A stretch of DNA of 51,374 nt from an uncultured bacterium (GTDB lineage: Bacteria > AUK180): NCBI GenBank assembly GCA_937863565.1, contig CALMGJ010000014.1, positions 87,817 through 139,190 of the forward strand. The letters are read 5' to 3'. Below are positions 1-27,718 of the stretch, one piece after another. The position numbers and the translations under genes are program-made. Positions within the stretch are counted from its first letter, which is position 1, and every line of letters starts with the position of its first letter. The notes under the pieces were generated by a model. That model was not told where the DNA came from. It did no database searches and saw only the letters and a list, made by a program, of their open reading frames with translations.

Positions 1-513
1 TCCGGTATCTGCATTTCCCGATATTCCGCCCCATATCGCCCAAGTTCGCCGGCGTAAGGTCTGTACGCTCCCCTCGATTTGTATCCACTCCGGTCCGGAA
101 AATATCCAGCCCCGCGCCGTCTCAATTGCCTTCAGTTCTAATGGCCTGAAGGTCAACTCGAGTCTTCTGTCCGAATATTTCCAATCACCCCATTTTTCGT
201 TTCCGGACGCGTCCCCTTCGGGGATCTTCAACACTACCGTATCATATTGCACTCGCGTTTCCACCCGTGTCTCTATTCGCGGATTTCCAACAACACTCAA
301 AAGTGCTTTTATACGCTCATCCTTTTCTTTAATTATATTGGCCGCTTTTCCGGTCACCATTACAAGATTGTCTGCTATCCGGAGTATTTCCGCATCCTTG
401 CCGGCCGCCGCGTGTCGCAACGCCGCAAGGCGGATATTCTGAATATATACCGCAGCCCCCAGCAGCGCGATCATTAAGGCCGTGATAATCTCAATTGTCT
501 TCTTTTTTCTCAT
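1..513 (-). CDS. Spanin-like membrane-anchored phage protein (3' truncated by window edge)
   Basis: Not in the ORF track because it has no stop in the window. My translation from ATG 513: MRKKKTIEIITALMIALLGAAVYIQNIRLAAL...ETRVQYDTVVLKIP...RRRTWAIWGGISG. N-terminal TM, coiled coil, aromatic beta-like tail, and it overlaps the holin-like gene. Spanin role is inference. Confidence 0.6.
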   Translation of the reverse strand, partial: MRKKKTIEIITALMIALLGAAVYIQNIRLAALRHAAAGKDAEILRIADNLVMVTGKAANIIKEKDERIKALLSVVGNPRIETRVETRVQYDTVVLKIPEGDASGNEKWGDWKYSDRRLELTFRPLELKAIETARGWIFSGPEWIQIEGSVQTLRRRTWAIWGGISGNADTG

Positions 514-718
514 TTAACGGCTTCAATCTTTTGGCGGCGTGCTCCCCTACATTGGAGATCCCGTAAAATAGCAGCACATCTTTCAATGTTCTCATCAGCA
601 CCTCGAATTTTTCCGGAGTTATGGACGGATTCACGTATAGATAAATGATCAGCGCACTTGTAATGAGAAGCGCAATAAAGAACTTTCGCTTATCCCGCAG
701 AGTGAACAGCCCGTTCAT
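491..718 (-). CDS. Holin-like small membrane protein
   Basis: 75 aa; RKFFIALL-type basic+TM start, second hydrophobic segment ending YGISNVGEH, charged C-tail. Confidence 0.6.
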   Translation of the reverse strand: MNGLFTLRDKRKFFIALLITSALIIYLYVNPSITPEKFEVLMRTLKDVLLFYGISNVGEHAAKRLKPLNEKKEDN

Positions 719-1248
719 TAATGGATTTTTTTCAGATGAACTTCCAGGGTCACGGTGCCGTATGTGTCCGCAGTGTCGCCGCCCTGATTCGCCCAGAACA
801 TCACCAGCCTGCTCAGCGATTTTATCACCGCGCCCTTATTGTACAGTTCACCGACGGCGGGCTTGATCCCAGTGCCTGCAGTTGCCATCGCGTTCAATAC
901 TTTCAGATCGGTGACGCCCTCTAATTGCGACCGGTCCCGGTTGCTCGCGTACGGTGCGAGTGTTATCTGCTTATTCCCGTCCCGGGCCGAGATCACGGCC
1001 AAAAGCGATATGGCATCATACTCGGCCGTATCAAAGTCAGCGGCAACGCCGTCTGCCCAGGTAAGCGCCGTAATACTGGCCAGATCGGCCAGGTCGAAAA
1101 CAAAACGATAGAACCGGGAGTTCTCCGTTTTATCGTATTCGATGTAATTGTTCGGGCTGGCTATTAAAGCGAATCTGGTCTTAAATCCTGTATTGAATAC
1201 CACGCCCGGCACATTGTTCGCGTTCACGTCTGCTACATAGTATTTCAT
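718..1248 (-). CDS. Phage protein, possibly structural
   Basis: 176 aa, GGAGG SD upstream, beta-rich composition, directly downstream of the giant virion gene. Confidence 0.6.
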   Translation of the reverse strand: MKYYVADVNANNVPGVVFNTGFKTRFALIASPNNYIEYDKTENSRFYRFVFDLADLASITALTWADGVAADFDTAEYDAISLLAVISARDGNKQITLAPYASNRDRSQLEGVTDLKVLNAMATAGTGIKPAVGELYNKGAVIKSLSRLVMFWANQGGDTADTYGTVTLEVHLKKIH

Positions 1249-1266
1249 AAAATACCTCCGTATTTG

Positions 1267-4200
1267 TTATTCATTGTTTTCCATATCTATAGACATATCA
1301 TCCGTAATCTCGGTATCCCCTTCGTCCAGGTCGTTCTGCAGCGGTTCCCAGTCGTACGGGATCAAGCGCATCAGTCTGGCGCCGAACTGCTTTACTGCGA
1401 ACGGATAGGCTTCGAGATACGACATCACGTCGCTTCGGCTTCTGAGCTTCGTATAATCGTTCAGATACTTGGCCCAGAAGTTGATCTTCTCTTCTGTATA
1501 TTTAGCGGACTCCTCCTTCTCTTTTTCGGATGCTGATGGATCCCGGGCTATTTTCCCAAATTCGGACTGCGCCTCATTGATGTTCCTGATTATATATTCC
1601 TCATACGCCCGGCTCTTGTATGTCGGCACGGCCAGTATTGAAAGCGCCGTTTGTGCTATATCGTTATTCTCTATCTGTGTTTCCACGAACTCCATCGGCG
1701 GGAATATGAATTTAGCGATATGCCATAGCTTATCAAGCGCCTGCCTGTATGGCGGGTCGCCTTTATTGAATATTTCCCGTCCCTTCCAGCTGCGGTTCTT
1801 TGAGAGTTGCCGCATCATCATCACGAGTTTGCCGGCCATCAGTTCTGTTGCGAGCTCAAAGTTCCGCTCCACGATTCTGTCTAAGAGAAAGAGCGGGCCC
1901 GGGAGCGCCACGATATTCTCTCCCCAGATGATCTCCCCCGTATCGGGGTGCCGGTAATATGTCTTTTTAGACGCCTTATACAGCGTCGTCATTTTATAAT
2001 TCTGGGCGGCAAGCACGCTTTTTGCGATGAACCGGGCCCCTATCGTGGCCCCCATTTTCTGCAGCGCATCTCCCCGCAGGCTTTTCGAGAGATCGTCGCC
2101 TCCGAGCAGGGCAACTTTTAGGGCATCGTCTATCTGGTTATTGATCATGCAGGTTGAGAATGTCGGCGTATAGAACTCAAGGTTCATGAATGTCCTGTAT
2201 CTGTCCCGTACCCTGCCGTAATCGCCGAACTCGGTAGCGCAGTCCTTCACTATTTTCCGGAAGGCGTCGGATGTCAGATCTGTCACCTTTCTGATCTTCA
2301 TCTCGTTTATGATGGCGCCCATCCTGATCGTATCGTCCCCCTGCCAGCCGATGCTGGAGAGGTACTCGTATCCGGAATCCACCATCTTTATCGGGTCCCC
2401 GCCGAGTTCCTTCATTTTTTTGAACAGGCCGGAGTTCTGATTTGCCGACAGCCATTTCTTCATCACGCTCACGTGATTATGCAGCAGTTTCATTGTCTCC
2501 CCGGTCAGCCCGAGTTCTTTGGCCCTGCGGTAGATCGGCCCGTTGTTCATCACCTCGCTCATCCCGTCGGTCAAGGCTTCTTCCACAAAAGAGAAATACT
2601 CCGGCCCGAATCTCAGCCGCGCCGCCTGATACATATCATTGGTCCAGATGATCGTCTGCATATAGAAAGACCAGGCCTTCATCCGGTGATTTATCTGCCC
2701 GTATATCTTCAAAAATTCCGGCCAATGCGCCGTCACGGGATCGGTGAGCTCCGCGAGGTCGGCGGCCAGGCGCGGGTGCACGACATAGCCTTCGAAGCCC
2801 TTCACGGGCTTCCAGTCTTTCGGCGCTTTATCGCCTGCCTCCATCACGAGTTTCGATGTCCGCTTGAGGTTCTCGAAGAGCCGCGCATATTCGGTGCTTC
2901 TCACGTTCTCCACGGCATAATACCCGCTTGCCACTGCCAGATCGACTTCAACGCCCTCTTCTCCCACGGCGCGCATCGTATCGTATATGGTCGGCTCGGA
3001 ACGGCCGGCATATCCGAATTTCGGCGTTCCTTTTCCGCCGGCGCCTACGATCACATCCCCGCCCTCTTTTTCCAGCATGTGGTGGTGTCCGTACTGTATA
3101 TTCTCGTACACGAATATTTTCCGGTTCAAGTTCCGGATCTCGTCTTGTATCTCTGCTGCCTTCTGTCCGTTTTTAGTATGCCGGAGCTCGTCGGTCAGCT
3201 CCAGTATTCTTTTCCTGGAGCCGGCTATGATGTGGTCGGGGAATATCTTGGCCTTGGTGGTGGCGCCCATTGCGGTGAGCCTTTCCCCCATCAGATCATA
3301 CCACCGCTTGAGTTTCAGGATGATGTCCCGCTCTTCGGGGGATATCGCCCCCATCCGCACGAGGTCGTCGGCGATCGCGGGCGTTCTGGTCGCCTTCTCG
3401 TATATCCCGAAGAGGAATTTTCTGCGTTCTGCGGTCGTTCCGCGGAAGAAGTGCCTCAGCGTTGCCATGGCGTCGTCTATTCCCATATTTGCGCGCGCGC
3501 GGGCGGCAATGATCATACGGTAATCGTCCATGAACCCGTGATCGCGATACCACGAATCCACGAATGCGTCGTTCCTGGTCCGCTCCAGCATTTTCCGGAC
3601 CATAAAATAGGCATTAGAGCGTTTATCCGCGGCAATAGCGAACATCGCCTCGTCGTTCAGGGCCGGTTTAAGCGGCGTCACGGCTTCCCAGTAGGCCTCG
3701 AGATTGGCATCAGGGTTCCCGCCCTTCTCTATGAGCGCCTTGATCGTTTTGGTATATCGCGGGTCCGCGAAAACGCCCGAGATCTTCGGCTGGTCCGAAG
3801 TCGGGAATATCTTCTTTAAAAGCTCGGCGTCCCTTTTGAGGTCGTCAAGCTCGGTCGACGCCGTAAGCTGATATCGTATCTCTCCGAGGTCATCAAAGAA
3901 CGGTTCCTCTACAGGAAGAACATCGGCACCCCATCGTCTATTCCCTTTTTGTTCCAGTACAGTATCTGTTCTAAGACGTATTCCTTCAAGTTCTCCCAGG
4001 ATACCTTCGATCCGTTCTTCGTATTCTCCTGTTTTAAGAGCATTTCCGCTTCTTCCTCTTCTTCGGCCGTAGGTATCACGACCCACTTTTCGAAAGCTTC
4101 GGTCAATGTAGCCGCTCGCCACACCAGCGCTTCGTGGTGTTTTCCATCCGCTATTTCCAGCCACAGCCGATACGCCGCCACTTTCAGGGTCACCCCGTAT

Positions 4201-7200
4201 TTGCCACGAATATACGCGCGCAGGCACGCGAGCCCCGCTACCATCACCGGTTCCGGCATTTGGAAGTTTCCCATATAGTCCTTGTACCCCTTCGGGCACC
4301 CCTTTGCCGAGAATGCGTTTGCCAGTGAGTTTTTCCATCCTGATGTTTTGTACATACACGCCTCCCTGTGCGTCGGCGCTTATATCTGCGCCGATCCTGC
4401 CCAGTCTCTTCATCTTTTCGATGAAGGCCGGCATCTCCTTGTCGGGGATGATATACATATATCCCCTTAGCCTGCCGCTTCGGATAGAACCTTCAACCTC
4501 TTCTATCATAAGAGTATAATGATATTGTTCCAAAAAGTCAAGTGTCTCTTTCGAGAGCACCCGCTCTCCGAGTTGCGGCATCGCATCGAGGTCGATCTGT
4601 TTCATCTTCACGATGGCCTCATGGAATTCGCGGGCGGGCAAACTCCTCACATTCCCGAGCAAGGGTATATTGGCATACGGCATCGCCGCCTTTGTTTTCC
4701 CGAGTTCGGCGAGTTCATCGAGGGAATTGCCGAGTTCCTCCCAGGTGTCGATCTTCTTGAACGCCTCTTCGGGTATGTCCTCGGCCCCGACCGTGTACAG
4801 CCCGGCGGGATACGCGTAGCCCTTCTTGGGATGTATGAGCGGTTTTCCCAAAATTCCGGCGTCATCCAGCGTTTTATCGAACAGGGCGTCTATCGTCCTC
4901 TTCACGCCCGCCTCGTCCCCGATATCCCAGTCCGCTATGTAGAATATTTCATCGCCCCCCTTCCGGACGACTTTTACCCGTCCGCCGAATTTATGATGCA
5001 CCCTCTCGAAGAAATTGCTCATGAAGGCGTTCATCTCCTTATCGTTCTTGAAAAGGTTCCCTCCGGCGAGGTTCGAGACATCCGAATACAGTATCCTTTT
5101 CCCCTTCTCCCCTTTCTTCAGGGCTCCGAGCGCTTCTTCCAATAATCCCGTCCCGTACATATCGTTATAGGCCTTCCGGTATGCGGGGTCCCTCACCCTT
5201 CCCCAGATGAGGTCTATGAGGTTCTTCTTCTGCTTGGGATCGAGGTCCGCGGCCTCTATCGCCCTCGCGGCCTTATTTAGCGCCTCCTCGTCTGCGCCCC
5301 CGCTCACAGGGTCCGCGGCGCCGTACACATTGAAATCGATATCCGCGACAGGCCTCTGCCATTTCTCCACTATCCCGGTTGAGAAGCTTTCGTCCCGCAG
5401 GTATTTCCAGGCCGCCTCGGGGTCGGATATCTCCTCCCCGAACACCGCCTTTATCACTGCCTTCGTCTCATCGCTGTATCCCTCGCCGGTCTTTATGAAT
5501 TCCTGTACGGCCATTTTCGTTTTCTTTTTTGCGGCCTTTGTGAGCCCGTCCATATAAAGACCGTATTTATCTGCAATGTCTTTCTTCTTGAATATCCACT
5601 TAGTTTTCTTTGCGTCGAGCGCCTCGTCGGCATATTTCACCGCGTCATCGAGTATCCCGTCTTTAATTGTATTGTATAATGACCTGAACTTCTCTTTCAG
5701 TTCTTTTATGTCCTCAACGGTCACCCCGTACCTTGCGGCCTCGGCCTTCGCGTCTATCATGATCCCGATATTCCCGCTTTCGTATATGGCCGCTCTGCCG
5801 CCGTGCATCCGGGCGGCCCTGTCCACGGCCTCGTATATGATATCGTTCACGGCATCGGCCTCGAGATGTCCCAGGGCGTCGTTCATTTGTTTGAGGTCCT
5901 TGACCCCGAACTGATAGAATTCCCCGCTGTCGCCCATTATGTCGCCGGCGATCTTCATTCCGCCCCTTGAGAGCGCGTGCACGGTTTTATCCGATGTCAG
6001 CGCCTCGTCGATAATGTCCAGCGTTTCGGGGTCGGCGATATCTCCCGTATAGTTCCTGCTCAGATGCCTCGGTTTCGGCCCTTTGCCCACGGACTGGCCG
6101 CCGGGGGCGCCTGTTCCCGGGGCGATCTTCTTTCCCGTGAAATCCTCGAGCAGGCCGGCGGTTTTCTCTATCGGCTCTTCCTCCCACTTCTGCCTGAGTA
6201 TGGCATCCTGTATCTCGTCCGTCTGTCCGGGCCGGTATTTATTCGCCTCTTCGAGCGCGTCTGCGAGCTGAAGTTCTTTCTGCACATCCCGCGGCACGGT
6301 ATCGGCGATCCCGGAAGCGAGGTCTTCCATCATCTTCACGGTCTTCCCCGTCATTCCGGCCGTGCCGGCCTTGATCCGTGCCATTTTGGAAAGGTTCTGC
6401 AGATGTGCGGGCTCGAAGAGATCTCCGAAGAGCGGGTTCTTCACGCCCACCTTCAGGGCATTGAGGATATTGCTCACGCTCTTATCCCCTTCGAGCACGC
6501 GCTTGAATATATTGGCGTCGCCGGTGATCTCTATCATCCGTCTTTGTATGTCGGCAAGTTTGGTAAGCGCCTTCACGGCCTCCTTTCCGCTTCCGTATGT
6601 GTCCAGAAGGGCGGTATATGTCAAAAGCCCGTCGGCCCCGAGATTCCCCGCCTGCATCATCTTGAGAAGCCGCATCGGGTCCTTCACGGTTATGGTCTTT
6701 GCCGCGCCGCCCGCGGCTGCGATCTCCTTTAATATCTTCGATTCCTTTGCCCCCTTGACAAGGAGCGGTATCGACCTGAACCCGGCGAGCGCGAGTTCTC
6801 CCGCCGCCGTCCATATCAGGTTCTCCGGCCCGAGGAGTTCGCCGAGAAGTCCCACGAGCATATCCCGGAGTATATCGGGCCGCCGCATATATTCCGGCAT
6901 ATTATCGGAGAAGTACAGGGTCTCCTCCTTCTTGTCGAGCCAGTTCCGGTATTTATCGCGGAGCCCCGCCATTGCGGCCTCTTTTTCGTGTTCCAGGCGT
7001 TTGAGCTCTTTCTGGTTTTTCGCCCACCGCTCATTGTATTCCGCCGTCCCGTCGGGGTCATACGGGTATTGTCCGGCATAGACCCGGGCCCGGAAGAGCA
7101 TCGCCGCCGTTTCGGGATGATAGTCCCAGAAGAGCTTTTCCTCTTTGGATGTCCGCGACTGTGTGTTCTTGTCCGCGCCCTTGATCATTTCGGGCGTGAA

Positions 7201-8646
7201 CCTCCACCAGGGCGCGGCGAAGAACAGGTCTTCCGCCGTCAGTTTTGTTTTCATTTTCCCGCCGGGCAGGTATTGTTCTACATATTCGTCGGGCACGGGC
7301 TCTTTGAATACCGCCTCGATCACGGAGCGCGCCTTTTCCGCGGCGAACATCCTCCGCGCGTATTCGAGCATACCGCTTTTCCGGGCCTCCGATGCCTGTA
7401 TATTAGGGATCGCCGTGCCGGTGGCCGGGCCGGTCCCGGACGCCGCGGCCTTCACTCCGGAGAGGAACCGGCCTGCGAATGTCGGCGCCGTTGTTCCGAA
7501 CGCCTCTTTCAGTTCCTTTTGCATCCTCGGGGATACGAGGTCCCACACATTCCCGGGCATCGCCTGCATTGCGGCATTGAACACGAAGTTGAAGGTATCG
7601 CTTACAAGTTCAACCTGCGAGGGCTTATAGTATTTGCGGTAGTTCTCATTGAATTTTATAAGTTCCCGTATCGCGTCGGCTTCCGCGTCCGATGCGAGCG
7701 CGGGGGCTTCTTTTGTCAGGGTCGCCGCGCCCGGCGTGTATCTTTTATTGTGTTCGGCCGTCTCTTCGGCCGATACGGCCCCGTATGCGTCGTTTTCCGC
7801 GTCGGGGTCTTTGACCCTTGCCGTATACTTGCCGGATAGGAATGCTTCCTCCGATTCGATATTCCGCTCCAGGGTTTTGGCCGTTCTTTTCTTCTCCTCG
7901 ATCTTCTGCAGCTTTTTTTCAGCCTCGCCGGGCACATGATAGCCCTGCGCAAAAGGCATGTTGCCGTCCGGCGTTTCTAATCCGGAGGCGGTCAGCCTTA
8001 ATAGCTCGTCCTGTGCCTCTTTCTCCTCATAGGCCTGTTTCTCGAGCGTTTCTTTCTCTTCTTTCTCGATCAGCGCCCTCTCGAATTTTCTGGTCCGTTC
8101 TATGCTGTCGCGGTATCCCTTGAGTTCTCCGGCCGCCCTCTGGCGCGCCTTGCGGCCCTCGGCGTCGAGTTCCAGGAAATATTTTTCCATCTCTGCGGGG
8201 TCCTGCAGCCTGGCGGCGGTGGTGCCTTCTATGGCCGTGCCGGCATTTTTTTTCACATATTCCTTTACCCAGTCCTTGAATTCCGCCCGTTTTCGCGCAT
8301 TGGCCTTGTCCGTATCGGATGTATAGTTCCAGATGGATGCTATCTCGTCATATGCGAATTTCCGTCCGGACTTCTTCGCTTCCTCTTTTGCCCTTTCCTC
8401 GGTCAATAATGCTCCCACCCGGTCGATCTCGCCGATATATTCTTCCAGGGCGCCGGGTTTCAGCAGTTTGAAAGCGGTGAAAGACGGGTCGAGCTTGCTC
8501 ACGTCTTCGGGGGTGAGCGAGTTCATATACTGTCTGATCACGGCCAGAAGCCCCTCGCGGTCCTTGGGGTCCGCGATATCGGTCCCGAGCTCGCTTTCGG
8601 CTATGAAATCGAAGTCCAGGAATTTATACTTATCCTTATCGTCCAA
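1267..8646 (-). CDS. Giant internal-virion/ejection (polyvalent-type) protein, ~2459 aa, with two GGDEF-like domains
   Basis: Long open frame at the ejectosome position of a podovirus gene order. Likely start TTG 8646 (GGAG SD, overlaps the upstream stop). Motifs DLKQMNDALGHLEAD and SDVSNL...VRKGGDEIF. Confidence 0.8.
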   Translation of the reverse strand: MDDKDKYKFLDFDFIAESELGTDIADPKDREGLLAVIRQYMNSLTPEDVSKLDPSFTAFKLLKPGALEEYIGEIDRVGALLTEERAKEEAKKSGRKFAYDEIASIWNYTSDTDKANARKRAEFKDWVKEYVKKNAGTAIEGTTAARLQDPAEMEKYFLELDAEGRKARQRAAGELKGYRDSIERTRKFERALIEKEEKETLEKQAYEEKEAQDELLRLTASGLETPDGNMPFAQGYHVPGEAEKKLQKIEEKKRTAKTLERNIESEEAFLSGKYTARVKDPDAENDAYGAVSAEETAEHNKRYTPGAATLTKEAPALASDAEADAIRELIKFNENYRKYYKPSQVELVSDTFNFVFNAAMQAMPGNVWDLVSPRMQKELKEAFGTTAPTFAGRFLSGVKAAASGTGPATGTAIPNIQASEARKSGMLEYARRMFAAEKARSVIEAVFKEPVPDEYVEQYLPGGKMKTKLTAEDLFFAAPWWRFTPEMIKGADKNTQSRTSKEEKLFWDYHPETAAMLFRARVYAGQYPYDPDGTAEYNERWAKNQKELKRLEHEKEAAMAGLRDKYRNWLDKKEETLYFSDNMPEYMRRPDILRDMLVGLLGELLGPENLIWTAAGELALAGFRSIPLLVKGAKESKILKEIAAAGGAAKTITVKDPMRLLKMMQAGNLGADGLLTYTALLDTYGSGKEAVKALTKLADIQRRMIEITGDANIFKRVLEGDKSVSNILNALKVGVKNPLFGDLFEPAHLQNLSKMARIKAGTAGMTGKTVKMMEDLASGIADTVPRDVQKELQLADALEEANKYRPGQTDEIQDAILRQKWEEEPIEKTAGLLEDFTGKKIAPGTGAPGGQSVGKGPKPRHLSRNYTGDIADPETLDIIDEALTSDKTVHALSRGGMKIAGDIMGDSGEFYQFGVKDLKQMNDALGHLEADAVNDIIYEAVDRAARMHGGRAAIYESGNIGIMIDAKAEAARYGVTVEDIKELKEKFRSLYNTIKDGILDDAVKYADEALDAKKTKWIFKKKDIADKYGLYMDGLTKAAKKKTKMAVQEFIKTGEGYSDETKAVIKAVFGEEISDPEAAWKYLRDESFSTGIVEKWQRPVADIDFNVYGAADPVSGGADEEALNKAARAIEAADLDPKQKKNLIDLIWGRVRDPAYRKAYNDMYGTGLLEEALGALKKGEKGKRILYSDVSNLAGGNLFKNDKEMNAFMSNFFERVHHKFGGRVKVVRKGGDEIFYIADWDIGDEAGVKRTIDALFDKTLDDAGILGKPLIHPKKGYAYPAGLYTVGAEDIPEEAFKKIDTWEELGNSLDELAELGKTKAAMPYANIPLLGNVRSLPAREFHEAIVKMKQIDLDAMPQLGERVLSKETLDFLEQYHYTLMIEEVEGSIRSGRLRGYMYIIPDKEMPAFIEKMKRLGRIGADISADAQGGVYVQNIRMEKLTGKRILGKGVPEGVQGLYGKLPNAGTGDGSGARVPARVYSWQIRGDPESGGVSAVAGNSGWKTPRSAGVASGYIDRSFRKVGRDTYGRRRGRSGNALKTGEYEERIEGILGELEGIRLRTDTVLEQKGNRRWGADVLPVEEPFFDDLGEIRYQLTASTELDDLKRDAELLKKIFPTSDQPKISGVFADPRYTKTIKALIEKGGNPDANLEAYWEAVTPLKPALNDEAMFAIAADKRSNAYFMVRKMLERTRNDAFVDSWYRDHGFMDDYRMIIAARARANMGIDDAMATLRHFFRGTTAERRKFLFGIYEKATRTPAIADDLVRMGAISPEERDIILKLKRWYDLMGERLTAMGATTKAKIFPDHIIAGSRKRILELTDELRHTKNGQKAAEIQDEIRNLNRKIFVYENIQYGHHHMLEKEGGDVIVGAGGKGTPKFGYAGRSEPTIYDTMRAVGEEGVEVDLAVASGYYAVENVRSTEYARLFENLKRTSKLVMEAGDKAPKDWKPVKGFEGYVVHPRLAADLAELTDPVTAHWPEFLKIYGQINHRMKAWSFYMQTIIWTNDMYQAARLRFGPEYFSFVEEALTDGMSEVMNNGPIYRRAKELGLTGETMKLLHNHVSVMKKWLSANQNSGLFKKMKELGGDPIKMVDSGYEYLSSIGWQGDDTIRMGAIINEMKIRKVTDLTSDAFRKIVKDCATEFGDYGRVRDRYRTFMNLEFYTPTFSTCMINNQIDDALKVALLGGDDLSKSLRGDALQKMGATIGARFIAKSVLAAQNYKMTTLYKASKKTYYRHPDTGEIIWGENIVALPGPLFLLDRIVERNFELATELMAGKLVMMMRQLSKNRSWKGREIFNKGDPPYRQALDKLWHIAKFIFPPMEFVETQIENNDIAQTALSILAVPTYKSRAYEEYIIRNINEAQSEFGKIARDPSASEKEKEESAKYTEEKINFWAKYLNDYTKLRSRSDVMSYLEAYPFAVKQFGARLMRLIPYDWEPLQNDLDEGDTEITDDMSIDMENNE
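3909..4355 (-). CDS. Nested alternative-frame gene (148 aa) inside the giant protein gene
   Basis: GGGAGG SD 5 nt before ATG 4355, upstream internal promoter, globular-looking composition, while the host frame here is a G/R/S-rich linker. Confidence 0.7.
   Translation of the reverse strand: MYKTSGWKNSLANAFSAKGCPKGYKDYMGNFQMPEPVMVAGLACLRAYIRGKYGVTLKVAAYRLWLEIADGKHHEALVWRAATLTEAFEKWVVIPTAEEEEEAEMLLKQENTKNGSKVSWENLKEYVLEQILYWNKKGIDDGVPMFFL
4513..4541 (-). promoter_or_regulatory. Intragenic sigma70-type promoter
   Basis: Minus strand TTGACT-ttttggaacaatatcat(17)-TATACT in an AT-rich patch of a GC-rich ORF. Confidence 0.7.
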
Positions 8647-9379
8647 TATATTTCTCCGCGAGTTTATATCCTTCCGAGTTTTTGCCGCTCGAGTTCGCCA
8701 CGATCCTGAGGAACAGTTCATAGTTTCCGGCATCGAGGGCATCGCGGGCCGCTTTCAGGGAGGTACTCGAGCGTATCCCGAAATCCGGCACGACGGCATA
8801 TTGCGGTTTCATTGTATTGTCGCCGGGCGCCGCTCCGTCTCCGGGTCCTGTCGCCCCGCCGCCGGTGTTCCCGGTGCGTCTTTTATCGAGTTCGATGCGG
8901 AGCATTGACTGGCGCTCTTCCTCCTCCCGTATCATGTCCGCCAGGACGGCTTTTCTGGAGGTATCCCATGTCCGGCTCATTTCGGCGGTCAGTCCTTTGA
9001 TAAAAGTGTTTATACTGTTCAGCTCGCTTGTCAGCGAAGACGTCTCCGCCCTGAGTATATCGAGCCTCTCCTTTTTCTGTTTCTCTGTCTCTTTTTCCTC
9101 TGCCGCAGCGGCACGGAGCCCGTATTCTCTTTCCGCTTTTTCTTTGGCGGCCGCGATCTTCTCCCACTGTATGTCCTGATGTCCTTCTTTGATGGCCTGA
9201 TCGAAGATACGGTTCTTTTGCTGGTATTCCAGTTGTCTTTCCTGGAATTCCCTCATTTTTTCCTTGGCCTGTTTATCCTCTTCCAGCATCTTGATGTATT
9301 CCCTTCTCTTCACGGCCTCTTTAACGGCGGTTGTGAGGGCCAGAAGCCCTGCAGTGAAATCGTCGCCTTTAATGCCCAT
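8636..9379 (-). CDS. Probable ejection/internal virion protein (coiled-coil)
   Basis: 247 aa, E/K/Q-rich helical, GGAGG SD, between nozzle and giant gene. Confidence 0.6.
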   Translation of the reverse strand: MGIKGDDFTAGLLALTTAVKEAVKRREYIKMLEEDKQAKEKMREFQERQLEYQQKNRIFDQAIKEGHQDIQWEKIAAAKEKAEREYGLRAAAAEEKETEKQKKERLDILRAETSSLTSELNSINTFIKGLTAEMSRTWDTSRKAVLADMIREEEERQSMLRIELDKRRTGNTGGGATGPGDGAAPGDNTMKPQYAVVPDFGIRSSTSLKAARDALDAGNYELFLRIVANSSGKNSEGYKLAEKYIGR

Positions 9380-9456
9380 ATCTGCCTCCGGGCGGAATAT
9401 TCCGCCACTTATCGGTTTTTATCATCATCTTGCTTTTATCATTTTTCATTCTTCAT

Positions 9457-9966
9457 TTAATATTTATACGGCCAGTATTCGGGATGTTCGCGCCTGATCT
9501 TGGCGATCTCTGCGGGCGTCATCATGGAGAGGTCGAATCTCGGGTTCTCGGCCGGGGTCTGCAGTTCATCGGCCGTCACGGCATTTGATGCGGCGCCGGC
9601 AGCGCCCTTTATGGCGGCGCCGGGCAGGCCGCCGAATATATACCCGAGATTGCCCGCCGCGCCGAGTATGGCATTGATGATGGAATCGCGCTTTTTTTGC
9701 GCCTCCTGTTTTTCGGCGAGGTCCTTGGCCTCTTTCATCCGTCGTTCCTGGAGCCCGATCTCGGCCACATCTATATTGTATTTGGCGAAAAGATCGGTAA
9801 GGCTTTTGGCCATTGCATCGGAGTATGCGCTCGAATCGAGTGTTCCCCGTTTTGCCATTTCCGTTGCGATGGCCTCGGAGATCTCTTTTTTTGAGCTTCT
9901 CATATTTTCGGCGAGCGCCGCCTTGATGCTGTCATATTCGCTCATATATCTCTCCTTTTTTGACAT
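9457..9966 (-). CDS. Probable small ejection/DNA-pilot protein
   Basis: 169 aa, G/A-rich hydrophobic segment (ILGAAGNLGYIFGGLPGAAIKGAAG), AKRG..DSS motif, and position. Start may be the second ATG. Confidence 0.6.
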   Translation of the reverse strand: MSKKERYMSEYDSIKAALAENMRSSKKEISEAIATEMAKRGTLDSSAYSDAMAKSLTDLFAKYNIDVAEIGLQERRMKEAKDLAEKQEAQKKRDSIINAILGAAGNLGYIFGGLPGAAIKGAAGAASNAVTADELQTPAENPRFDLSMMTPAEIAKIRREHPEYWPYKY

Positions 9967-9990
9967 TCTTCATTTTTCATTCTTCTTTTT

Positions 9991-12906
9991 TCATCTTCCC
10001 CTCACGACCTTTCCCTCCATTTCTATACTGCGCACGGCGAGGTACTTCGTCGCATCGATCATGATGTCGATATTTCTCCCCTGGACGGTATGGGGGACCC
10101 TGCCCCTCTGTTTCCCGAGGCTCCGGCTGTGGTTCTTAACGGTGAGCGTTCCGGAGGCCTCAAGGTTCATCTTTTCCGCGTCCACGACTATTTCGTCATA
10201 TATGGTGTATTTTGTGCTTTTGGACAGCATCTTATACCTGATGTCGTCTCCTTTTCCTATACGTATCAGATAATGCTGGTCGCCCGTGTATCTGTACAGG
10301 ATGGTATCCTCCCATACAGCCTCTATTTCCATGATGGTATCGTCGGATATTATGTCCGCCGGCATCCATTCGCGCGTCGCGGGATCCCACAGCAGCGTGT
10401 ACCCGCCGGAATGGTATATGAGCGCGTATTTCCCGTCGATATTCGTTGCCGTGATCTTCAGCCCCTTATATCCCGTCACTGTTTTGTATATGATATTGAA
10501 TCCCGTTATCCGGTCCGGGAGCAGTCCCTTGTTCGTTACGATCTTGAATCTCCAGTATTTTTTCGTTTCGCTGTCTGAAGTATAGATTTTCTTCCAGTCG
10601 AACTCGGTCCAGGACGGCGTCCATCCCGGTGTCGTGGAATTTGAATAATATACTGTGGTCTCTATATCGCCGCCGTATAATCCGTATGCCCCGTCTGCGA
10701 TCGCCTGCTCCCTGATGACCTCGAATGACACCATGCTGGTGAGATCCGACAGGTACACTTCGTCCGTTATATATTCGTAATTGCTGGCATGGCTTTTATA
10801 AGCGTATTTAATATTAAGCTGCGTTGTCCCGGGTACCGATTGCGATACCCTGTTGTTCGTGTCGTTTTTGAAAACGGGTATTTCGGTATCGAATATTCCC
10901 CAGGCGGCCTCCGATAAGGCGTAACTTTTGAATTTCAGAAAAAATTGGTTTGTGGGGCTCCCCAGTACTTTTCTGATATACAGGGCTTTTTCGTCTCCGG
11001 TATCGTATGCGGCAAGATCGTTCCATTGCCATGGATAATCGTATCTTATACTGCCTATACTCTCGCTCTGTACGGACATTTTCTCCCATTCTCCGCGCGC
11101 GAGGAACACGGATATTGTTCCGTCGCCGAATGTACGGGCGAAATAAACAACTATATCGTCGCTGACAAACGCCGCTCTGGCGATCACGTTCGTTGCCGGG
11201 GATATGTATGTTTTATTCGTGTGTGCGGATGTTTCGAATATATACAGTTTTTCCGTCCCGCCGGTATCGTATGTATATCCGCTATAATATGTGTCCGTGA
11301 GTATTTTCGAAGCCAGGAACCAGTATGCGGCGTCCTTATACCGTACGCTCCATATCCGCACTTTTTCGCCGCTTATGGAAGCGGGGGTTCCGAGGTTGAA
11401 CGATGTATCGTAATACTTGATCCCCGTAGCCTCCGACCCGCCCGAGTATTCCACCGCGGACCAGTACAAGCGGCTGTTAGCAACGTCGGCGGGGAAATAT
11501 TTCAGGGTATTTGTCGCCGCGGTTGAAAGCGTTGTAGCGGTGATCTCATAATACGGGCTCGCTACGGGAAGCAGATAGCTCATGCTCATTTTTATTATCT
11601 TGGAATAATTTCCGGAAACATATGAATTGGCGAATATAACCCAGTTCGAGCCGAATACGCGTATCTGGATATGGTATCTGTCCCCGATTATGACTTTATT
11701 ATATTCCTTGAATATCCCCCCCCGGTTGATCACCACCGTGTCGATGCCGGTGATATAAGTAGACCCTTTGCTCGCCTGCCAGACCATAGCGTATGCCACC
11801 CAGCGGTTGTCCAATATCGGCATGCAGTTCACATATTCCTTTTTCACTGCCTCTCCGCCCACCGTATATGTTCCGGATATCGTATCAGATCCCGCCGTTT
11901 GCTTAACATATAATTTGTCGGGCGCATTGTATGTATAATCCGCCGGCAATCCCGCGCGCATGTTCAAGGGGTCGCTGAATGAATCGTTTATCGCGCTCAT
12001 CAGATTTTCGGGCGTGTTCTGTGTCAAATAATTCTCTATCTTGCCCGATATTTTATATGGCGCCCTTCCGGGGTATACGATATATACCTGATTGTCTTCT
12101 CCCATGAATACGAACGCCTTCCCGACCTCGGCGATTGAGCGCGGCACGCATCCGATCGAGGAGATCCTTTTATTTGTGTATCCGCTGGCCGGGAAATTCT
12201 GCAGTATATGAACATCTGTGCTTCTGAAAACATACGCCGTCGGTTCCACGGTCCCGTCCTTCATTCCGAGGAAAGTGCCGATCCCGACGATCTGGCCCTC
12301 CTTGGCGGATACCGCGAGGGACCCGGCAGCCCAGTCGTACGGCGTGCCGGTGGAGCCCCATTTAACCGTGTTCTTATATCCTGTGAAATTTGCTCCGACA
12401 AGTAGCCCCTGATGAATGCACAGATATTTTGACCCGTTCGTCTGGCGCTGCGTGAGGGTGTCTGAGCTGGTCGTGTCTATTTCCCAGAGCCCGTCGCTTT
12501 TTGTGCTGAAATATATCCGGTCATTGAGCATTACGAACGCTTGGCTTTCGACTATTTCGGCGAACTCCAGAGCACTGCCCCCGTTCATTACTATTCCCCA
12601 GCGGTCATGCTCATATGATTTCGCGAAGCGGTATTTGCCTGCAGCCCCGTCCCAGTATTGGGCGAGATAGTAATTCACCCCGTTTGAATTTTCGAAATGC
12701 GCCCAGGTATAGATATCGTAATTTTCGAGTACGGGATTGGTCGCCGATAACTGCTGCTTGATCTCGGTCGCGTTCCCGGCCTCATATCCCGGCCTCAGGT
12801 TCCCGGCTTCGTCGATCGAAAAGACAAGTTTCTGCTCGGTTCCGAGCGGTACCGACATATTATCGGCTTCATTAAGCCCGGGGAACTTGTCAATTCGGAG
12901 CCTCAT
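9991..12906 (-). CDS. Tail nozzle / packaged-DNA stabilization protein (P22 gp10 / tubular-B-like)
   Basis: 971 aa, N-terminal F.GLN motif, beta-propeller-like composition, IGCVPRSI motif, follows the adaptor gene. Confidence 0.65.
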   Translation of the reverse strand: MRLRIDKFPGLNEADNMSVPLGTEQKLVFSIDEAGNLRPGYEAGNATEIKQQLSATNPVLENYDIYTWAHFENSNGVNYYLAQYWDGAAGKYRFAKSYEHDRWGIVMNGGSALEFAEIVESQAFVMLNDRIYFSTKSDGLWEIDTTSSDTLTQRQTNGSKYLCIHQGLLVGANFTGYKNTVKWGSTGTPYDWAAGSLAVSAKEGQIVGIGTFLGMKDGTVEPTAYVFRSTDVHILQNFPASGYTNKRISSIGCVPRSIAEVGKAFVFMGEDNQVYIVYPGRAPYKISGKIENYLTQNTPENLMSAINDSFSDPLNMRAGLPADYTYNAPDKLYVKQTAGSDTISGTYTVGGEAVKKEYVNCMPILDNRWVAYAMVWQASKGSTYITGIDTVVINRGGIFKEYNKVIIGDRYHIQIRVFGSNWVIFANSYVSGNYSKIIKMSMSYLLPVASPYYEITATTLSTAATNTLKYFPADVANSRLYWSAVEYSGGSEATGIKYYDTSFNLGTPASISGEKVRIWSVRYKDAAYWFLASKILTDTYYSGYTYDTGGTEKLYIFETSAHTNKTYISPATNVIARAAFVSDDIVVYFARTFGDGTISVFLARGEWEKMSVQSESIGSIRYDYPWQWNDLAAYDTGDEKALYIRKVLGSPTNQFFLKFKSYALSEAAWGIFDTEIPVFKNDTNNRVSQSVPGTTQLNIKYAYKSHASNYEYITDEVYLSDLTSMVSFEVIREQAIADGAYGLYGGDIETTVYYSNSTTPGWTPSWTEFDWKKIYTSDSETKKYWRFKIVTNKGLLPDRITGFNIIYKTVTGYKGLKITATNIDGKYALIYHSGGYTLLWDPATREWMPADIISDDTIMEIEAVWEDTILYRYTGDQHYLIRIGKGDDIRYKMLSKSTKYTIYDEIVVDAEKMNLEASGTLTVKNHSRSLGKQRGRVPHTVQGRNIDIMIDATKYLAVRSIEMEGKVVRGR

Positions 12907-13080: not shown

Positions 13081-13168
13081 TCTTTCTTCACTCTTATCTT
13101 CTCATTCCTCATCCTTCTTTTCCCATTTTTCATTCTTCATTTATCATCTTTCATTTTTCATTCTTCAC
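13081..13168. repeat. Degenerate heptamer tandem repeat (TTCATTT/TTCATTC)
   Basis: tttcattcttcatttatcatctttcatttttcattcttcac; similar arrays at ~9437-9457, ~9964-9995 and ~50265-50295. Confidence 0.75.
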
Positions 13169-13773
13169 TATCTTACCCTCGGGCTTCCGAATTTTATCCT
13201 GGCGGTCCGCCCTGCGCCGTATTTTCCGCAAAGGCCGTCGAATTCCCTTTTGGCTATCATTGCGCTGTTTATATTCCCCTCGGCGCTTTGGCACATATAC
13301 GCGGTATACCAGACCGGAGCCATGTGGTATTCGGCTTCCACGGCGGGCTCGTCGTCCTCATCGGAGAGATTTTCGGGCAGCACATATGCGCGCACGGAAA
13401 GCGTATCCGCCGCGTCGAGCTCGGGCCAGATATACAGTCCCTGCCCGCTCTTATACCACCGGCACGTATTGTATCCGAGATCGTGCCTTTCAATGTCCGG
13501 GATCTCGTTTTCCTTGATCTCGGCATAGATATTGCCGTCGCTGTCCTCCACGGAGATCACCCCGTTTCTCAGAACGGAGTTATCGGTGTAGAAGGTATTT
13601 TCCGTATCCGGCGTATAGGCGAAGGATATTGTATCCGCATAACAGCGCGTTTGAGCGGCGAATTCCTGCATTCCCCGGTTCAGGAACACGGTCAGCTCAG
13701 CGTCGGTGAACCGCTCCCCGTTCCCGTCCAGTACCAGCGCCCTTGTCGCCGTGATCATTTCCGAAAGCGTCAT
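13168..13773 (-). CDS. Head-tail adaptor (tubular protein A-like)
   Basis: MTLSEMI..R...D....RFTDAEL..FLNRG N-terminus and IWPEL/EP....YH.A.V.Y motifs typical of podovirus adaptors. Confidence 0.7.
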   Translation of the reverse strand: MTLSEMITATRALVLDGNGERFTDAELTVFLNRGMQEFAAQTRCYADTISFAYTPDTENTFYTDNSVLRNGVISVEDSDGNIYAEIKENEIPDIERHDLGYNTCRWYKSGQGLYIWPELDAADTLSVRAYVLPENLSDEDDEPAVEAEYHMAPVWYTAYMCQSAEGNINSAMIAKREFDGLCGKYGAGRTARIKFGSPRVR

Positions 13774-14517: not shown

Positions 14518-15753
14518 TTATGCAAGGTCGTTCTTTATGCCCCAGTGTACGGCGTGCCTTTTGACATTTCTGAGCACGGGCGTGCCTATGTAGAGCAGCT
14601 GGTCCTTTCTTACCAGCGAATCATTCCCCTGAATGTTCTGGAGAAGGACCAAGTCCGTATTCTGATATTTCCCGGTTTCCACGGCGGCCTCGATCGGGAA
14701 CGAATATATCTCGAGATCGTCTATATCGAAACCGATCGCCATATTCTTATATCCCGGCACCGTAGCGCCGAGGCTGTCGTCCATCTCTCTGGATTCATAC
14801 AGATATATGGTCTTGCCCATAAGGTCGACCTTCTTAAAATTAACCCCGAACACTTCTATGTTCGGTGCCATCTGTAGATTGGTCAATCCCAGCCCCATAA
14901 CGCTCCCGATCCATTCATTGGAAGCCATTACCACCTTCGGTTTTCCCGAGGTGGTGCCGTACTGATAGAGCGCGGTCAAAAACTCCCATAATTTCCCTTT
15001 TGTCAGGGCTGTATTTGCGCCGCCGGATGTGTGGTCGACGACCGTTCCGCCGCGGCTATATATCTGCTTGTAAATGCCCTCGCATAACCACAGTGAATTG
15101 GCCGCGTCGCTTTTGTATTCTCCGTATAGCCATGAGCGCTCGATCTTTCGCGCGAGCTCGATCAGCGCATTCCGCCTCATGCTGTCCCTGGTATTTTTAT
15201 CAACGCCCTGGAGTACTGCATTCGCGGTGAAGTAATCGGCTTCTATGACATGATCGAATATCTGCATGGCCTGCTTTCGCTCATTCTCCGCTTCGTTCTT
15301 CCCGTCTCCGGCCGTGGCGATTGCGGTATTGCCGGGTCCCAGTATCTTCAAATAGTCGCCTGTCGATACCGTCGAAGCCCCGTCGGTAGCCACAAGGGTG
15401 ATTGTGTTATTTACCGTATCTACAGCGCTTACGCGGTAGGTGTGGCGGTCATTTTCCTCTTCAACAGTATCGCCGACTTTGAAATACTTATAGTCTCCTG
15501 CGACGGATAGCGGGACCACGGGCCATGCGGATACCGTACCGGCCACGAACGAGCTCTTGAGAGCATCCTGCTCGGCCCATGAAATATCGGGGTCATAGTG
15601 CATGATGCGCTTTGCTTTCGGAAATTTCTCTCCCATCAGGATCATGGCGAATAAACCCACGTCTCCGATGAGGTGCTGGATCTTGTCCCTCAGGAAATAT
15701 GCTCTGCGACCCGTTAGGACATCACTGAATACTCTTGTGCCAGATGTTACCAT
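14518..15753 (-). CDS. Major capsid protein (SU10/DUF5309-like)
   Basis: 411 aa after the scaffold gene; W.EQD, beta insertion domain, QIF, ELARKIERSWLYGE and EGI motifs; followed by a terminator. Confidence 0.8.
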   Translation of the reverse strand: MVTSGTRVFSDVLTGRRAYFLRDKIQHLIGDVGLFAMILMGEKFPKAKRIMHYDPDISWAEQDALKSSFVAGTVSAWPVVPLSVAGDYKYFKVGDTVEEENDRHTYRVSAVDTVNNTITLVATDGASTVSTGDYLKILGPGNTAIATAGDGKNEAENERKQAMQIFDHVIEADYFTANAVLQGVDKNTRDSMRRNALIELARKIERSWLYGEYKSDAANSLWLCEGIYKQIYSRGGTVVDHTSGGANTALTKGKLWEFLTALYQYGTTSGKPKVVMASNEWIGSVMGLGLTNLQMAPNIEVFGVNFKKVDLMGKTIYLYESREMDDSLGATVPGYKNMAIGFDIDDLEIYSFPIEAAVETGKYQNTDLVLLQNIQGNDSLVRKDQLLYIGTPVLRNVKRHAVHWGIKNDLA

Positions 15754-16795: not shown

Positions 16796-17043
16796 GTTCT
16801 CTCCTTTGATTTTTCCGCTAATATTTTTGCGTATCGTCTGTATTTCTTCAGCTCCCCGATCACGTTCTTCATGCCGTCGGCGTAGCCCCGTGCGTATTCG
16901 GGGGTATCCTTCTGCGCGGAGGTGGCATATGAGAACACCAGCGCCTCAAGCACCGTTTCGAGATCGTCGCCGATATTTTCGAGGCCTTTCGCCAGCCGGT
17001 ACATTCTCTTGTCCGGGAAATCCTGTTGCACCCATATTTTCAT
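16792..17043 (-). CDS. Hypothetical phage protein (post-portal small protein)
   Basis: 83 aa, ATGA overlap with portal, YARGYADG motif. Confidence 0.65.
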   Translation of the reverse strand: MKIWVQQDFPDKRMYRLAKGLENIGDDLETVLEALVFSYATSAQKDTPEYARGYADGMKNVIGELKKYRRYAKILAEKSKERT

Positions 17044-18605
17044 TGTTCGCCTCCGTGCGCTGCGGCTCCGGCTTCCGCCTGGCTCGCGAGATCGGTAGCG
17101 GCTCTGCTTTTCTGCGCTCCCATGGCGCCGATCAGGGCGGCCATCGGGTTCCCGGGCATCGATTCCGCGCCGGCGGAGGGATTCTGCTGCGCTGCGGCCT
17201 GCGCGGCCACTTCGAGCTGTTTCTTTTCTCTGGTTGACAGAAGGAAAAGATCGGGATCATGTCCCGATTCCTTCGCTATATATTCTATGATCGATCTTAT
17301 GTCTATGTATTTGCGTTCCGGGTCGAGGTTCATGAGCGTCATCGCGATCTTCGTGAAATCGTCTATGCGCATCTTGCGGGTGATCTCGCCCACGCCTCCG
17401 CCGTTCCATAAAAGATCCAGCCCGGTCATATCGGCGTCGGCCATTTGCAGGCACAGGTCTGCCACGGACATGAAAAAGTCGCCGATCTTCATCAACACCC
17501 GGTTGATCCGCAAATTCGCGTTCTGCGTCATTATGTTCACAACGGTTGCGTATTCCTGTCTCTGCAGCGATCCGCCCACGGCTATATCGAAATTCCCGGT
17601 TACCTCTTTCAGTTTCTGGTTCACGAGGTTATTGGTGAAAACCGCCGCATTGCTCATATCCGGCACTTTCATGAATTCCGGTATATCGTCTTTGCTGGAT
17701 ACCTGAAAGATCTTTCCGGCCACGATCTCGAACTGATCGGGGAGGCTGCGGTCTGAGGTGAACCCGACCGGACGGGACACCATGTCCTTATTGTCCAGCA
17801 TGAGGTTCAGGTTGTCTATATTGAGATTTATTATGTCTTCCGCGATCTCGAGTATCCCCTTGCCGTAGACGGTATCGTTCCCGGTCCTGTAGAGGTTCTG
17901 GACGAACACCGGTATCCGTCCGAACTCGTTTTTCGCGTTGCGCACCACATATGCGGAGTCGATCACGGACAGGACCGTCCCCTTGTCCCAGTACTCGTAC
18001 ATCGTGAACTGTTTTTTATGTTCGTCTATTGCGCTGGAGATCTTCTCTTTTGCGTATCTTTCAAAATCCGCCCCCGGCTCGTATACGGGATTATCGGCGA
18101 TATCGCGGTATGAGACCTGGATCTTACGGCATATCCAGCCTATATTGTCCGGCTCCGTCGCGTCGGGGTCTATGATGAGGTTCTCGAACTCTTCATATCC
18201 GAATGTCCCGTCCGGGGAGACGGTGGCGGCCATATTCCCTTTTATGAACAATGCGGACAAGAACATCTCCAGGCGCGCGCGGAAACGGCTCCGCTTGAAG
18301 ATCGAGTCCGCGATATTCTGTATTTTCCGCGCCTTTTCCGAGAGTCCCTTTTCGCGTGCGATCACCGTCGCCGGCCTCGGATTTGAAAGGAGCGTATCCT
18401 CCGTTCTGGCCAGCAGGTTCTCTATCTCCTGGAACGCGCGGGGATCATAGACATCGTTTGCCCCCGAATACTTCTTATGATCTTCGTCCCGGTCATTATT
18501 GTAGTATCCCTGCATCCGTTCGGATCGAGTCTTGTATTCCGTTTGCGTCGATTCCGCCTCTTTTATTGATGCCAGAATGATGTTTATTTCCTTTTTTTTC
18601 TTCAT
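17040..18605 (-). CDS. Portal protein
   Basis: 521 aa after TerL; IDPDA, YEYW, N.FGRIP, YGKGI motifs and a Q/A-rich C-terminal barrel. Confidence 0.85.
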   Translation of the reverse strand: MKKKKEINIILASIKEAESTQTEYKTRSERMQGYYNNDRDEDHKKYSGANDVYDPRAFQEIENLLARTEDTLLSNPRPATVIAREKGLSEKARKIQNIADSIFKRSRFRARLEMFLSALFIKGNMAATVSPDGTFGYEEFENLIIDPDATEPDNIGWICRKIQVSYRDIADNPVYEPGADFERYAKEKISSAIDEHKKQFTMYEYWDKGTVLSVIDSAYVVRNAKNEFGRIPVFVQNLYRTGNDTVYGKGILEIAEDIINLNIDNLNLMLDNKDMVSRPVGFTSDRSLPDQFEIVAGKIFQVSSKDDIPEFMKVPDMSNAAVFTNNLVNQKLKEVTGNFDIAVGGSLQRQEYATVVNIMTQNANLRINRVLMKIGDFFMSVADLCLQMADADMTGLDLLWNGGGVGEITRKMRIDDFTKIAMTLMNLDPERKYIDIRSIIEYIAKESGHDPDLFLLSTREKKQLEVAAQAAAQQNPSAGAESMPGNPMAALIGAMGAQKSRAATDLASQAEAGAAAHGGEQ

Positions 18606-23936: not shown

Positions 23937-23952
23937 GTTTTCTCCCCCTTTT

Positions 23953-24598: not shown

Positions 24599-24608
24599 GT
24601 TCTATCTC

Positions 24609-27637: not shown

Positions 27638-27718
27638 ATTGTTCTCCTGGTTTTTTGGGAAGGTGGGGAGACGGGGCGAGAGATAGTTCAGGAGCCGTAC
27701 TCCCCACCTTGATTGTCA

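Follow-up and report, generated by a model that had tools for sequence, protein, structure and literature searches.

Can a complete gene be encoded out of frame within the coding sequence of a giant phage protein, and be read there in its own right? This question is raised by a 51,374-nucleotide (nt) stretch of DNA from an uncultured bacterium of the lineage AUK180 (GenBank assembly GCA_937863565.1, contig CALMGJ010000014.1, positions 87,817 to 139,190 of the forward strand), which is referred to in its whole length as the window and to which all coordinates below apply. The minus strand of the window carries a giant open reading frame (ORF) of a prophage, and this ORF contains a second, nested ORF of 148 codons, the predicted product of which is named P0002. 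The initial annotation had described the nested ORF, together with a promoter-like motif and a Shine-Dalgarno (SD) sequence in front of it, as an expression unit overprinted inside a giant virion-protein gene, and had proposed that its product acts on a GGDEF-like domain of the giant protein. When the sequence was read again, the -35 element TTGACT, the 17-nt spacer, the -10 element TATACT, the GGGAGG, the ATG at 4355 and the 148-codon ORF were all found in place. Judged from sequence statistics, the nested frame is probably a real, independently initiated gene within a true dual-coding region, and its product would be a soluble helical protein of 17 kDa. The frame switch, the SD sequence and codon resampling, described in the next section, support the independent initiation that the annotation had suggested.

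Start signal and coding statistics of the nested frame

The nested ORF is contained entirely in the giant ORF, with which it shares the strand but not the frame. Its ATG is the earliest in the +1 open run, 8 codons past the upstream +1-frame stop, and is preceded by a translation-initiation signal of its own, GGGAGG-N5-ATG. SD sequences are in use in the host genome, where the GGAGG-ATG spacing peaks at 5 nt, and the nested SD sequence has exactly that spacing. GGAGG at a spacing of 4-6 nt was found in front of 113 of 1358 first-ATG starts of long ORFs (8.3%) versus 53 of 22531 internal ATGs (0.24%), which gives a likelihood ratio of roughly 35-fold for a genuine start. The predicted P0002 has 148 amino acids (aa), a mass of 16.9 kDa, an isoelectric point (pI) of 6.7 and no transmembrane or signal segment; its composition is balanced and K/A/E/L-rich, with 6 W and 8 Y. 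AlphaFold2, run on the single sequence, predicted an all-helical protein with seven helices at low confidence (predicted local distance difference test, pLDDT, 49). The giant frame over the same 149 codons reads, as the annotation had said, as a G/R/S-rich peptide (27 G, 18 R and 9 S), with a pI of 10.2.

The length of the nested ORF was not significant and was dropped as evidence for a gene: open runs of 139, 122 and 114 codons occur elsewhere in the giant gene in alternative frames of the same strand, and on the antisense strand such runs are as long as 553 codons. That long alternative-frame ORFs are common in the giant gene would suit a by-product of chance, in which the Gly/Arg/Ser-rich linker happens to leave the +1 frame open and coding-like and nothing else is encoded. 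Coding signal was scored with a codon log-likelihood model that had been trained on long ORFs of the host genome (n = 810). Of 47 windows of 150 codons along the giant gene, 46 scored best in frame 0; the one exception was 4392-3942. Within the scanned interval 4842-3583 the frame-0 signal was about +0.2 to +0.6 per codon outside approximately 4340-3910, while the windows 4332-3913 gave +0.14 to +0.38 for the +1 frame and -0.25 to +0.14 for frame 0 (mean log-likelihood ratio per codon). At a resolution of 30 codons the +1 frame is coding-like from about 4340 to 3913, and frame 0 falls to about zero. Sixty ATG ORFs of 100 codons or more, the nested ORF among them, lie in alternative frames on the same strand within these 810 long ORFs. 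Their mean score is -0.238 ± 0.137, and the alternative frame beats the main frame in one of the 60, the nested ORF itself (0.250 vs -0.011).

The codon score was then split into an amino-acid part (aaLLR, from log-likelihood ratio) and a synonymous part (synLLR). The aaLLR of the nested frame is 0.237, to be compared with 0.194 ± 0.039 for real genes and -0.101 ± 0.073 (maximum 0.045) for null +1 ORFs. Its synLLR of 0.013 falls between those of null ORFs and real genes, which is what double constraint would predict. Over the interval, the giant frame is also intermediate in aaLLR (0.067; null for the +2 frame, -0.141 ± 0.062), and its synLLR of -0.078 is poor next to the 0.128 ± 0.059 that real genes give in their main frame over similar stretches. 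When the giant peptide was held fixed, the +1 frame was forced open and synonymous codons were resampled by host usage, the +1 aaLLR dropped to -0.023 ± 0.037; the observed 0.237 stands at z 7.1 and was reached in none of 3000 resamples. Fourteen control blocks of the giant gene deviated in the opposite direction (z -1.9 to -4.7). In the reciprocal resampling, with the nested peptide fixed and frame 0 forced open, the frame-0 aaLLR was -0.081 ± 0.032, and the observed 0.065 (z 4.6) was again reached in 0 of 3000. Each frame looks tuned through the synonymous sites of the other, which is a dual-coding signature, and coding constraint was found in both frames by these single-sequence tests.

These results bear directly on the chance by-product. 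A G at codon position 2 of the giant frame becomes a G at position 1 of the +1 frame, which is coding-like, and shuffling the codon order of the giant frame keeps the +1 aaLLR at 0.240 ± 0.011; moreover, given the giant peptide, the +1 frame is open in 2.1% of resamples. The same codon-order shuffles, however, contain a mean of 8.5 +1-frame stops, with none of 5000 open, and the +1 signal vanishes (-0.02 ± 0.04, 0 of 3000 reaching 0.237) when the linker peptide is kept and its codons are resampled, so it is not a by-product of the Gly/Arg/Ser-rich linker. Taken with the SD odds (8.3% vs 0.24%) and the position of the nested ORF as the sole outlier among the 60 comparable ORFs, this leaves chance as a very improbable explanation. 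The interval was also considered as three separate genes with spurious read-through, and this arrangement was rejected. There is no frame-0 start codon from 4086 to 3681, so the giant frame must truly run through the interval; when codons were resampled with the nested peptide kept, moreover, not one of 5000 sequences had an open giant frame, and the mean number of stops was 8.3.

The main rival to a dual-coding region is a frame-change relic. The stretch would once have been read in the present +1 frame, or would be a gene piece captured out of frame, and two compensating indels or an out-of-frame insertion would have left a scrambled linker in the giant protein and an untranslated fossil in the +1 frame, next to a coincidental SD sequence and ATG. 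A protein-like +1 frame beside a degraded giant frame is the pattern expected after a recent frame change, and runs of five A lie, by eye, near both ends of the interval. The available text on a bacterial pangenome reports out-of-frame remodelled genes to be common (PMC8788219), and a faint likeness of P0002 residues 79-134 to a tail-fibre-like repeat, with a repeat-inflated score, would suit a former piece of a structural protein. On the other hand, a relic requires the shifted giant frame to have stayed open by accident (0 of 5000, as above), and an SD sequence at modal spacing occurs at just 0.24% of internal ATGs. The giant frame is also more protein-like than a passive by-product (z 4.6), and such reciprocal tuning is not predicted by a relic. 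Furthermore, the third positions of the giant frame are the second positions of the nested frame, so that an unconstrained nested frame should let them drift toward host usage. They have not, as the synLLR of -0.078 against 0.128 ± 0.059 indicates, which would be odd if the +1 frame were free to drift. We therefore regard a relic as unlikely, if clearly the strongest competitor. An assembly artefact, in which a pair of compensating indel errors had shifted an ordinary segment of the giant protein out of frame, was considered as well; the source is a 38-contig metagenome assembly, and homopolymer runs lie close to either end of the interval. The erroneous frame, too, would need to be free of stops by chance (0 of 5000), next to a coincidental SD sequence and ATG, and the other long genes of the window read through intact, which makes an artefact hardly credible.

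The direction of overprinting implied by the annotation was not supported. The nested frame is fully protein-like and the giant frame is degraded, so the giant frame may be the newcomer here, or the two frames may be co-adapted.

Promoter-like site and structured leader

The sigma-70-like motif upstream of the nested start, which in the giant frame encodes LDFLEQYHYT, scores 10/12 and is the best of 13 such sites in 1000-9500. Promoter-like motifs are over-represented in that region (13 vs 5.4 ± 2.4 in shuffled sequences), and three of them overlap at 4548-4505. The density of sites scoring at least 10/12 is 0.226 per kb within long ORFs and 6.4-fold higher, 1.44 per kb, outside them, so the organism seems to use a sigma-70-like consensus; the density difference suggests that this consensus is in use in the host. 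The chance of finding a site of at least 10/12 on the correct strand within 300 nt is about 3%, and the site thus appears moderately beyond chance.

The 181-nt stretch between the promoter-like site and the nested start is predicted to be strongly structured. Positions 4510-4330 fold with a minimum free energy of -57 kcal/mol (z -3.85), none of 200 shuffles being as stable, and this is the lowest z of 82 windows along the 7.5-kb giant mRNA. Two hairpins stand out within it (Table 1). The second ends 6 nt before the SD sequence, which is unpaired in the local fold, and holds the upstream +1-frame stop TAA (4382-4380) in its loop. Hairpins in this position could have a role in internal initiation, RNA processing or ribosome pausing. 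A search of Rfam over 1-12000 gave nothing relevant, and an intron or other RNA family was dropped as an explanation for that reason; a mobile insertion was dropped as well, there being no notable flanking direct or inverted repeats. One sub-threshold Rfam match, to PYLIS_3 at 10479-10573 on the minus strand, lies inside the gene for a 971-aa protein; with 24 bits against a gathering score of 38 (expectation value, E, 0.15) it is most likely due to chance.

The structure and the SD-like GGGAGG at the junction also raise the possibility of programmed +1 frameshifting near 4379-4340, which would yield a protein of approximately 1610 aa ending in the P0002 sequence beside the full-length protein. 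SD-like elements are known to stimulate frameshifting, as in prfB and dnaX, and the +1 frame opens just 8 codons before the ATG. Yet no slippery or hungry-codon site was seen at 4379-4340 by eye (no tool was used), the structure is on the upstream side of any possible shift site, not the downstream side, and the spacing from the SD sequence to the ATG is the initiation spacing of the host genome. Frameshifting is accordingly given little credence, about as little as the chance by-product.

Under independent initiation, the giant gene would be read straight through 4355-3909 as a Gly/Arg/Ser-rich, probably flexible linker, while initiation by ribosomes at GGGAGG-N5-ATG in the +1 frame would yield P0002 as a product of its own, soluble, helical and 148 aa long. 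We infer that P0002 is made from the long late transcript by such internal initiation, and the two stable upstream hairpins may expose the SD sequence and slow the ribosomes arriving from upstream. Whether P0002 might also be made from a short transcript in the lysogen, off the internal sigma-70-like promoter, is a more doubtful matter; going by the consensus match, it is somewhat short of an even chance. At the other end of the ORF, a small hairpin with the nested TAG in its loop and a T-rich run behind it resembles a terminator by pattern only, and a terminator at this stop was dropped as a candidate.

The giant protein, its prophage and the search for relatives

The region of the window that holds the giant gene is a prophage within a bacterial contig (Table 1). 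The giant gene is encoded downstream of SU10-like head and adaptor genes, and ordinary cellular genes begin near 36 kb of the window. With its two integrases and the methylases, the interval 22408-33766 could represent two integrated elements adjoining each other. The first approximately 32 codons of the giant ORF (8644-8742, minus strand) carry a coding signal in another frame, which is the 3' end of the upstream ORF 8636-9379, and the database form of the giant protein (P0003) has 2459 aa; together these place the true start of the giant gene probably near 8646. The giant protein had no match in Pfam, PHROG, NCBIfam, PADLOC or PDB sequences. The label of virion protein used in the annotation is therefore best kept as an inference from gene position: the gene does adjoin SU10-like head genes, and this position is the sole basis for the label.

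Table 1. Positions in the window of the nested ORF, its putative signals, the giant ORF and other prophage features
Feature	Position	Strand	Remarks
Nested ORF (P0002)	4355..3909	-	148 codons, +1 frame of giant ORF, ATG to TAG
Shine-Dalgarno sequence GGGAGG	4361..4366	-	5 nt (CGTGT) before ATG 4355
Sigma-70-like motif TTGACT-N17-TATACT	4513..4541	-	-35 at 4541-4536, -10 at 4518-4513; within giant frame
Structured RNA stretch	4330..4510	-	181 nt, promoter-like site to nested start
Hairpins	4431..4401 and 4394..4373	-	each z -4.3, 0/200 shuffles as stable
Small hairpin, nested TAG in loop, then T-rich run	3903..3921	-	terminator-like by pattern only
Giant ORF	8742..1267	-	2491 codons counted from first ATG
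GGDEF-like motif set nearest nested gene	4939..5082	-	giant residues ~1221-1268, ends RKGGDEI
Degenerate GGDEF-like stretch	5755..5904	-	giant residues ~945-996; KQMNDALGH ... ESGNIG
Adaptor (PF24175)	13168-13773		upstream of giant gene
Major capsid protein	14518-15753		upstream of giant gene
SU10-like portal	17040-18605		upstream of giant gene
Terminase	18895-20496		upstream of giant gene
N6/N4 DNA methylase, C5 DNA methylase, DUF5131 protein	within 22408-33766		between structural module and host genes
Tyrosine integrases	26205-27125 and 32837-33766		beyond structural module

The GGDEF-like domain that the annotation had placed just upstream of the nested gene was not recognized by Pfam and is retained as a weak lead. 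An intact-looking motif (GGDEI) lies approximately 195 codons upstream of the nested start; the second, degenerate stretch, approximately 270 residues away from the first motif set, has ESGNIG where GGDEF is expected. PF00990 gave no match even at E <= 10 on excised pieces of the giant protein, and the family model reached 11.4 bits (E 0.28) at 5755-5904 only, below the cut-off of 23.8. The host genome encodes nine bona fide GGDEF proteins. A profile built from their GGDEF domains scored giant residues 945-972 at 5.0 bits and aligned residues 1191-1266 in register (SDVSN...FKND...RKGGDEI at 1221-1266), yet at -3.4 bits. By language-model features, 24 of 30 matches of giant residues 1230-1462 belonged to a set that bears GGDEF domains, with a score of 0.91 and a recognition value (2251) below the mark. 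A single-sequence AlphaFold2 model of residues 1190-1400, of low confidence (pLDDT 49), places GGDE at a beta hairpin between two strands; Foldseek returned 0 matches at E <= 0.001 for this model, and the weak ones include at least 8 GGDEF entries as well as nucleotide cyclases. Several weak leads thus agree, and none is a passed test.

No homologue of the giant protein or of P0002 was found in any collection searched. Viral contigs were empty for the N-terminal, middle and C-terminal parts of the giant protein, the whole giant protein, P0002, the 971-aa neighbour and the adaptor. Genome contigs, metagenome contigs and 60 related genomes gave no homologues, nor did tblastn against 50,697 phage records or blastn against phages, and the genome itself contains no paralogue. 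The host family is represented by only 6 other genomes in the set. Word-based searches of a collection of 5.8 billion proteins, the first two of them restricted to lengths of 1370-4360, returned only the query's own entry. The prophage appears extremely isolated, the giant protein, the adaptor and the 971-aa neighbour all being without close relatives in the collections searched. Among 1.84 billion representatives P0002 itself is absent, which agrees with the annotation's expectation that gene callers would miss it, and the search with P0002 gave one marginal match (E 6.8e-4). This match was not accepted, since it is inflated by a 51-aa tail-fibre-like repeat. Residues 79-134 of P0002 faintly resemble one tandem-repeat unit of approximately 51 aa (..SAFEEWSLLPGNEEKGF..) of P0004, a 1233-aa tail-fibre-like protein (pairwise E 2e-4).

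Several of these observations count against a real nested gene and were weighed as such. All of the evidence comes from a single sequence, and the lack of homologues just described weighs in the same direction. P0002 is without a match in Pfam, PHROGs, NCBIfam, PADLOC and PDB sequences and had no usable match in the ESM language-model atlas (recognition 1701); the confidence of its single-sequence fold is too low for the model to serve as evidence. The hairpin at the nested stop is no more stable than shuffles (z -0.10) and was given no weight. The windows behind the promoter and SD odds were picked after the site had been seen. A two-state change-point model, in which the frames are exclusive, assigned only 4137-3934 to the +1 frame (gain 14.6) and left the first approximately 70 codons ambiguous, and in a segment-based scan of the genome the nested region ranked 4th of 1562. 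None of the three higher-ranking segments is a long open +1 ORF: two are interrupted by +1-frame stops, and the third, although open, spans only 45 codons. This last segment (codons 210-255 of the plus-strand ORF G000 C11:142422; gain 14.8) has an R/L/C-rich main frame, and the ORF may be a shadow ORF or another frame anomaly.

Known nested genes and the possible role of P0002

The nested pair is a known, embedded architecture of the Rz/Rz1 type. The Rz1 gene lies embedded in Rz, in its +1 frame, and the accessible part of a survey of two-component spanin systems counts 182 of 528 as embedded, describes o-spanin genes as mostly unannotated and discusses a stop-loss extension route to embedding (PMC6139136). 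As in lambda Rz/Rz1, the inner gene described here is complete, has a start signal of its own and occupies the +1 frame of the same strand; gene callers routinely miss genes of this kind. Unlike Rz1, P0002 is 148 aa long and predicted to be soluble and helical, has no signal peptide or usable lipobox, and lies outside any lysis cassette; unlike Rz, the outer gene is a 2491-codon orphan beside head genes, the overlap falls in a linker, and there is no sequence relationship. P0002 was rejected as an o-spanin on these grounds: it has no hydrophobic N-terminus (the best 19-residue Kyte-Doolittle mean is 0.98, at residues 31-49), its AKGC lacks a preceding signal sequence, and the neighbours are head and adaptor genes.

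Phage phiX174 carries same-strand, out-of-frame, fully nested genes with internal ribosome-binding sites (B in A, E in D, and K), and the P0002 ORF shares this same-strand, out-of-frame full nesting. Compositional asymmetry between frames serves as a criterion for telling the old frame from the new one in the parts of three articles that were available (PMC3494269, PMC8227390, PMC6188560). Unlike phiX174, the window holds a large double-stranded DNA (dsDNA) prophage with no genome-size pressure, and the older-looking frame is the short nested one, while the long gene is disordered and biased there. Phage morons, which are promoter-gene-terminator cassettes expressed from prophages, offer a further comparison. 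Like a moron, the P0002 ORF would be a small extra gene with a promoter-like site and an SD sequence inside the late structural operon of a prophage; morons lie between genes, whereas this ORF lies inside one, its stop hairpin is not significant, and its promoter is a putative one.

The giant protein itself recalls the polyvalent proteins of prophages, some gigantic members of which carry GGDEF domains and are located near virion genes, as far as the accessible text goes (Iyer et al., 2017, PMC5512222). It is likewise encoded beside prophage late virion genes (SU10-like capsid, portal, adaptor and terminase, with integrases), as described in that text. On the other hand, none of the 131 domains given there for the class was recognized in it by hidden Markov models, and its GGDEF-likeness is sub-threshold; the accessible part of the same article describes no gene nested in another frame (PMC5512222). 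The out-of-frame remodelled genes invoked for the frame-change alternative resemble the interval in that a segment is read in a non-ancestral frame, and, in the text available, they need neither an SD sequence, ATG and stop of their own nor reciprocal tuning of both frames (PMC8788219).

How a dual-coding region of this kind arose can be considered from two sides. Composition marks the nested frame as the mature one, and the openness odds favor the opening of a +1 frame within a linker already present (2.1%) over read-through of a pre-existing gene (<0.02%). Both observations are compatible with a tolerant linker in which the frames gradually co-adapted, and also with stepwise stop-loss extension, a route that the portion of the survey cited above discusses for embedded spanins (PMC6139136).

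A role of P0002 that is linked to the giant protein, whether as its partner, its chaperone or its antidote, is favored here because embedded pairs such as Rz/Rz1 have products that act together; argued from this analogy, it is a tentative assignment and on balance an unlikely one. A more specific scheme, which builds on that of the annotation, is less probable again, and we consider it a long shot: P0002 would neutralize or control the GGDEF-like nucleotide-cyclase module of the giant protein, or exclude superinfecting relatives, as part of a self-contained promoter-leader-SD-gene cassette in the linker of an injected effector, working in the lysogen and in late infection. The comparison with MuF toxins and their immunity genes, which was drawn in its support, remains an analogy. 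If the antidote-cassette scheme were true, the shared nucleotides would mean that recombination can never part effector and antidote.

What is distinctive here is the combination of a 148-aa inner gene, its place in the linker of a giant orphan, a promoter-like site, a structured leader and a reversed asymmetry, with the inner frame mature and the outer one degraded. Keyword searches of open-access text, which were not exhaustive, turned up no report of a giant phage virion-protein or polyvalent-protein gene with another gene nested in it. If its 148-aa product is real, the P0002 gene would rank among the longer out-of-frame genes that are fully embedded in another gene of a dsDNA phage and, as far as those keyword searches reach, the first found in the linker of a giant virion-associated gene. 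The case would also show that gene callers overlook such genes, as the absence of P0002 from the library of 1.84 billion representatives illustrates, and that single-genome tests (the split into amino-acid and synonymous parts by frame, and reciprocal synonymous resampling) can flag nested genes that have no homologues. With two strong hairpins directly upstream of its SD sequence, it would provide a clonable case of a ribosome start inside a translated ORF. For phages of this kind it would mean that the disordered linkers of giant proteins can house complete hidden genes.

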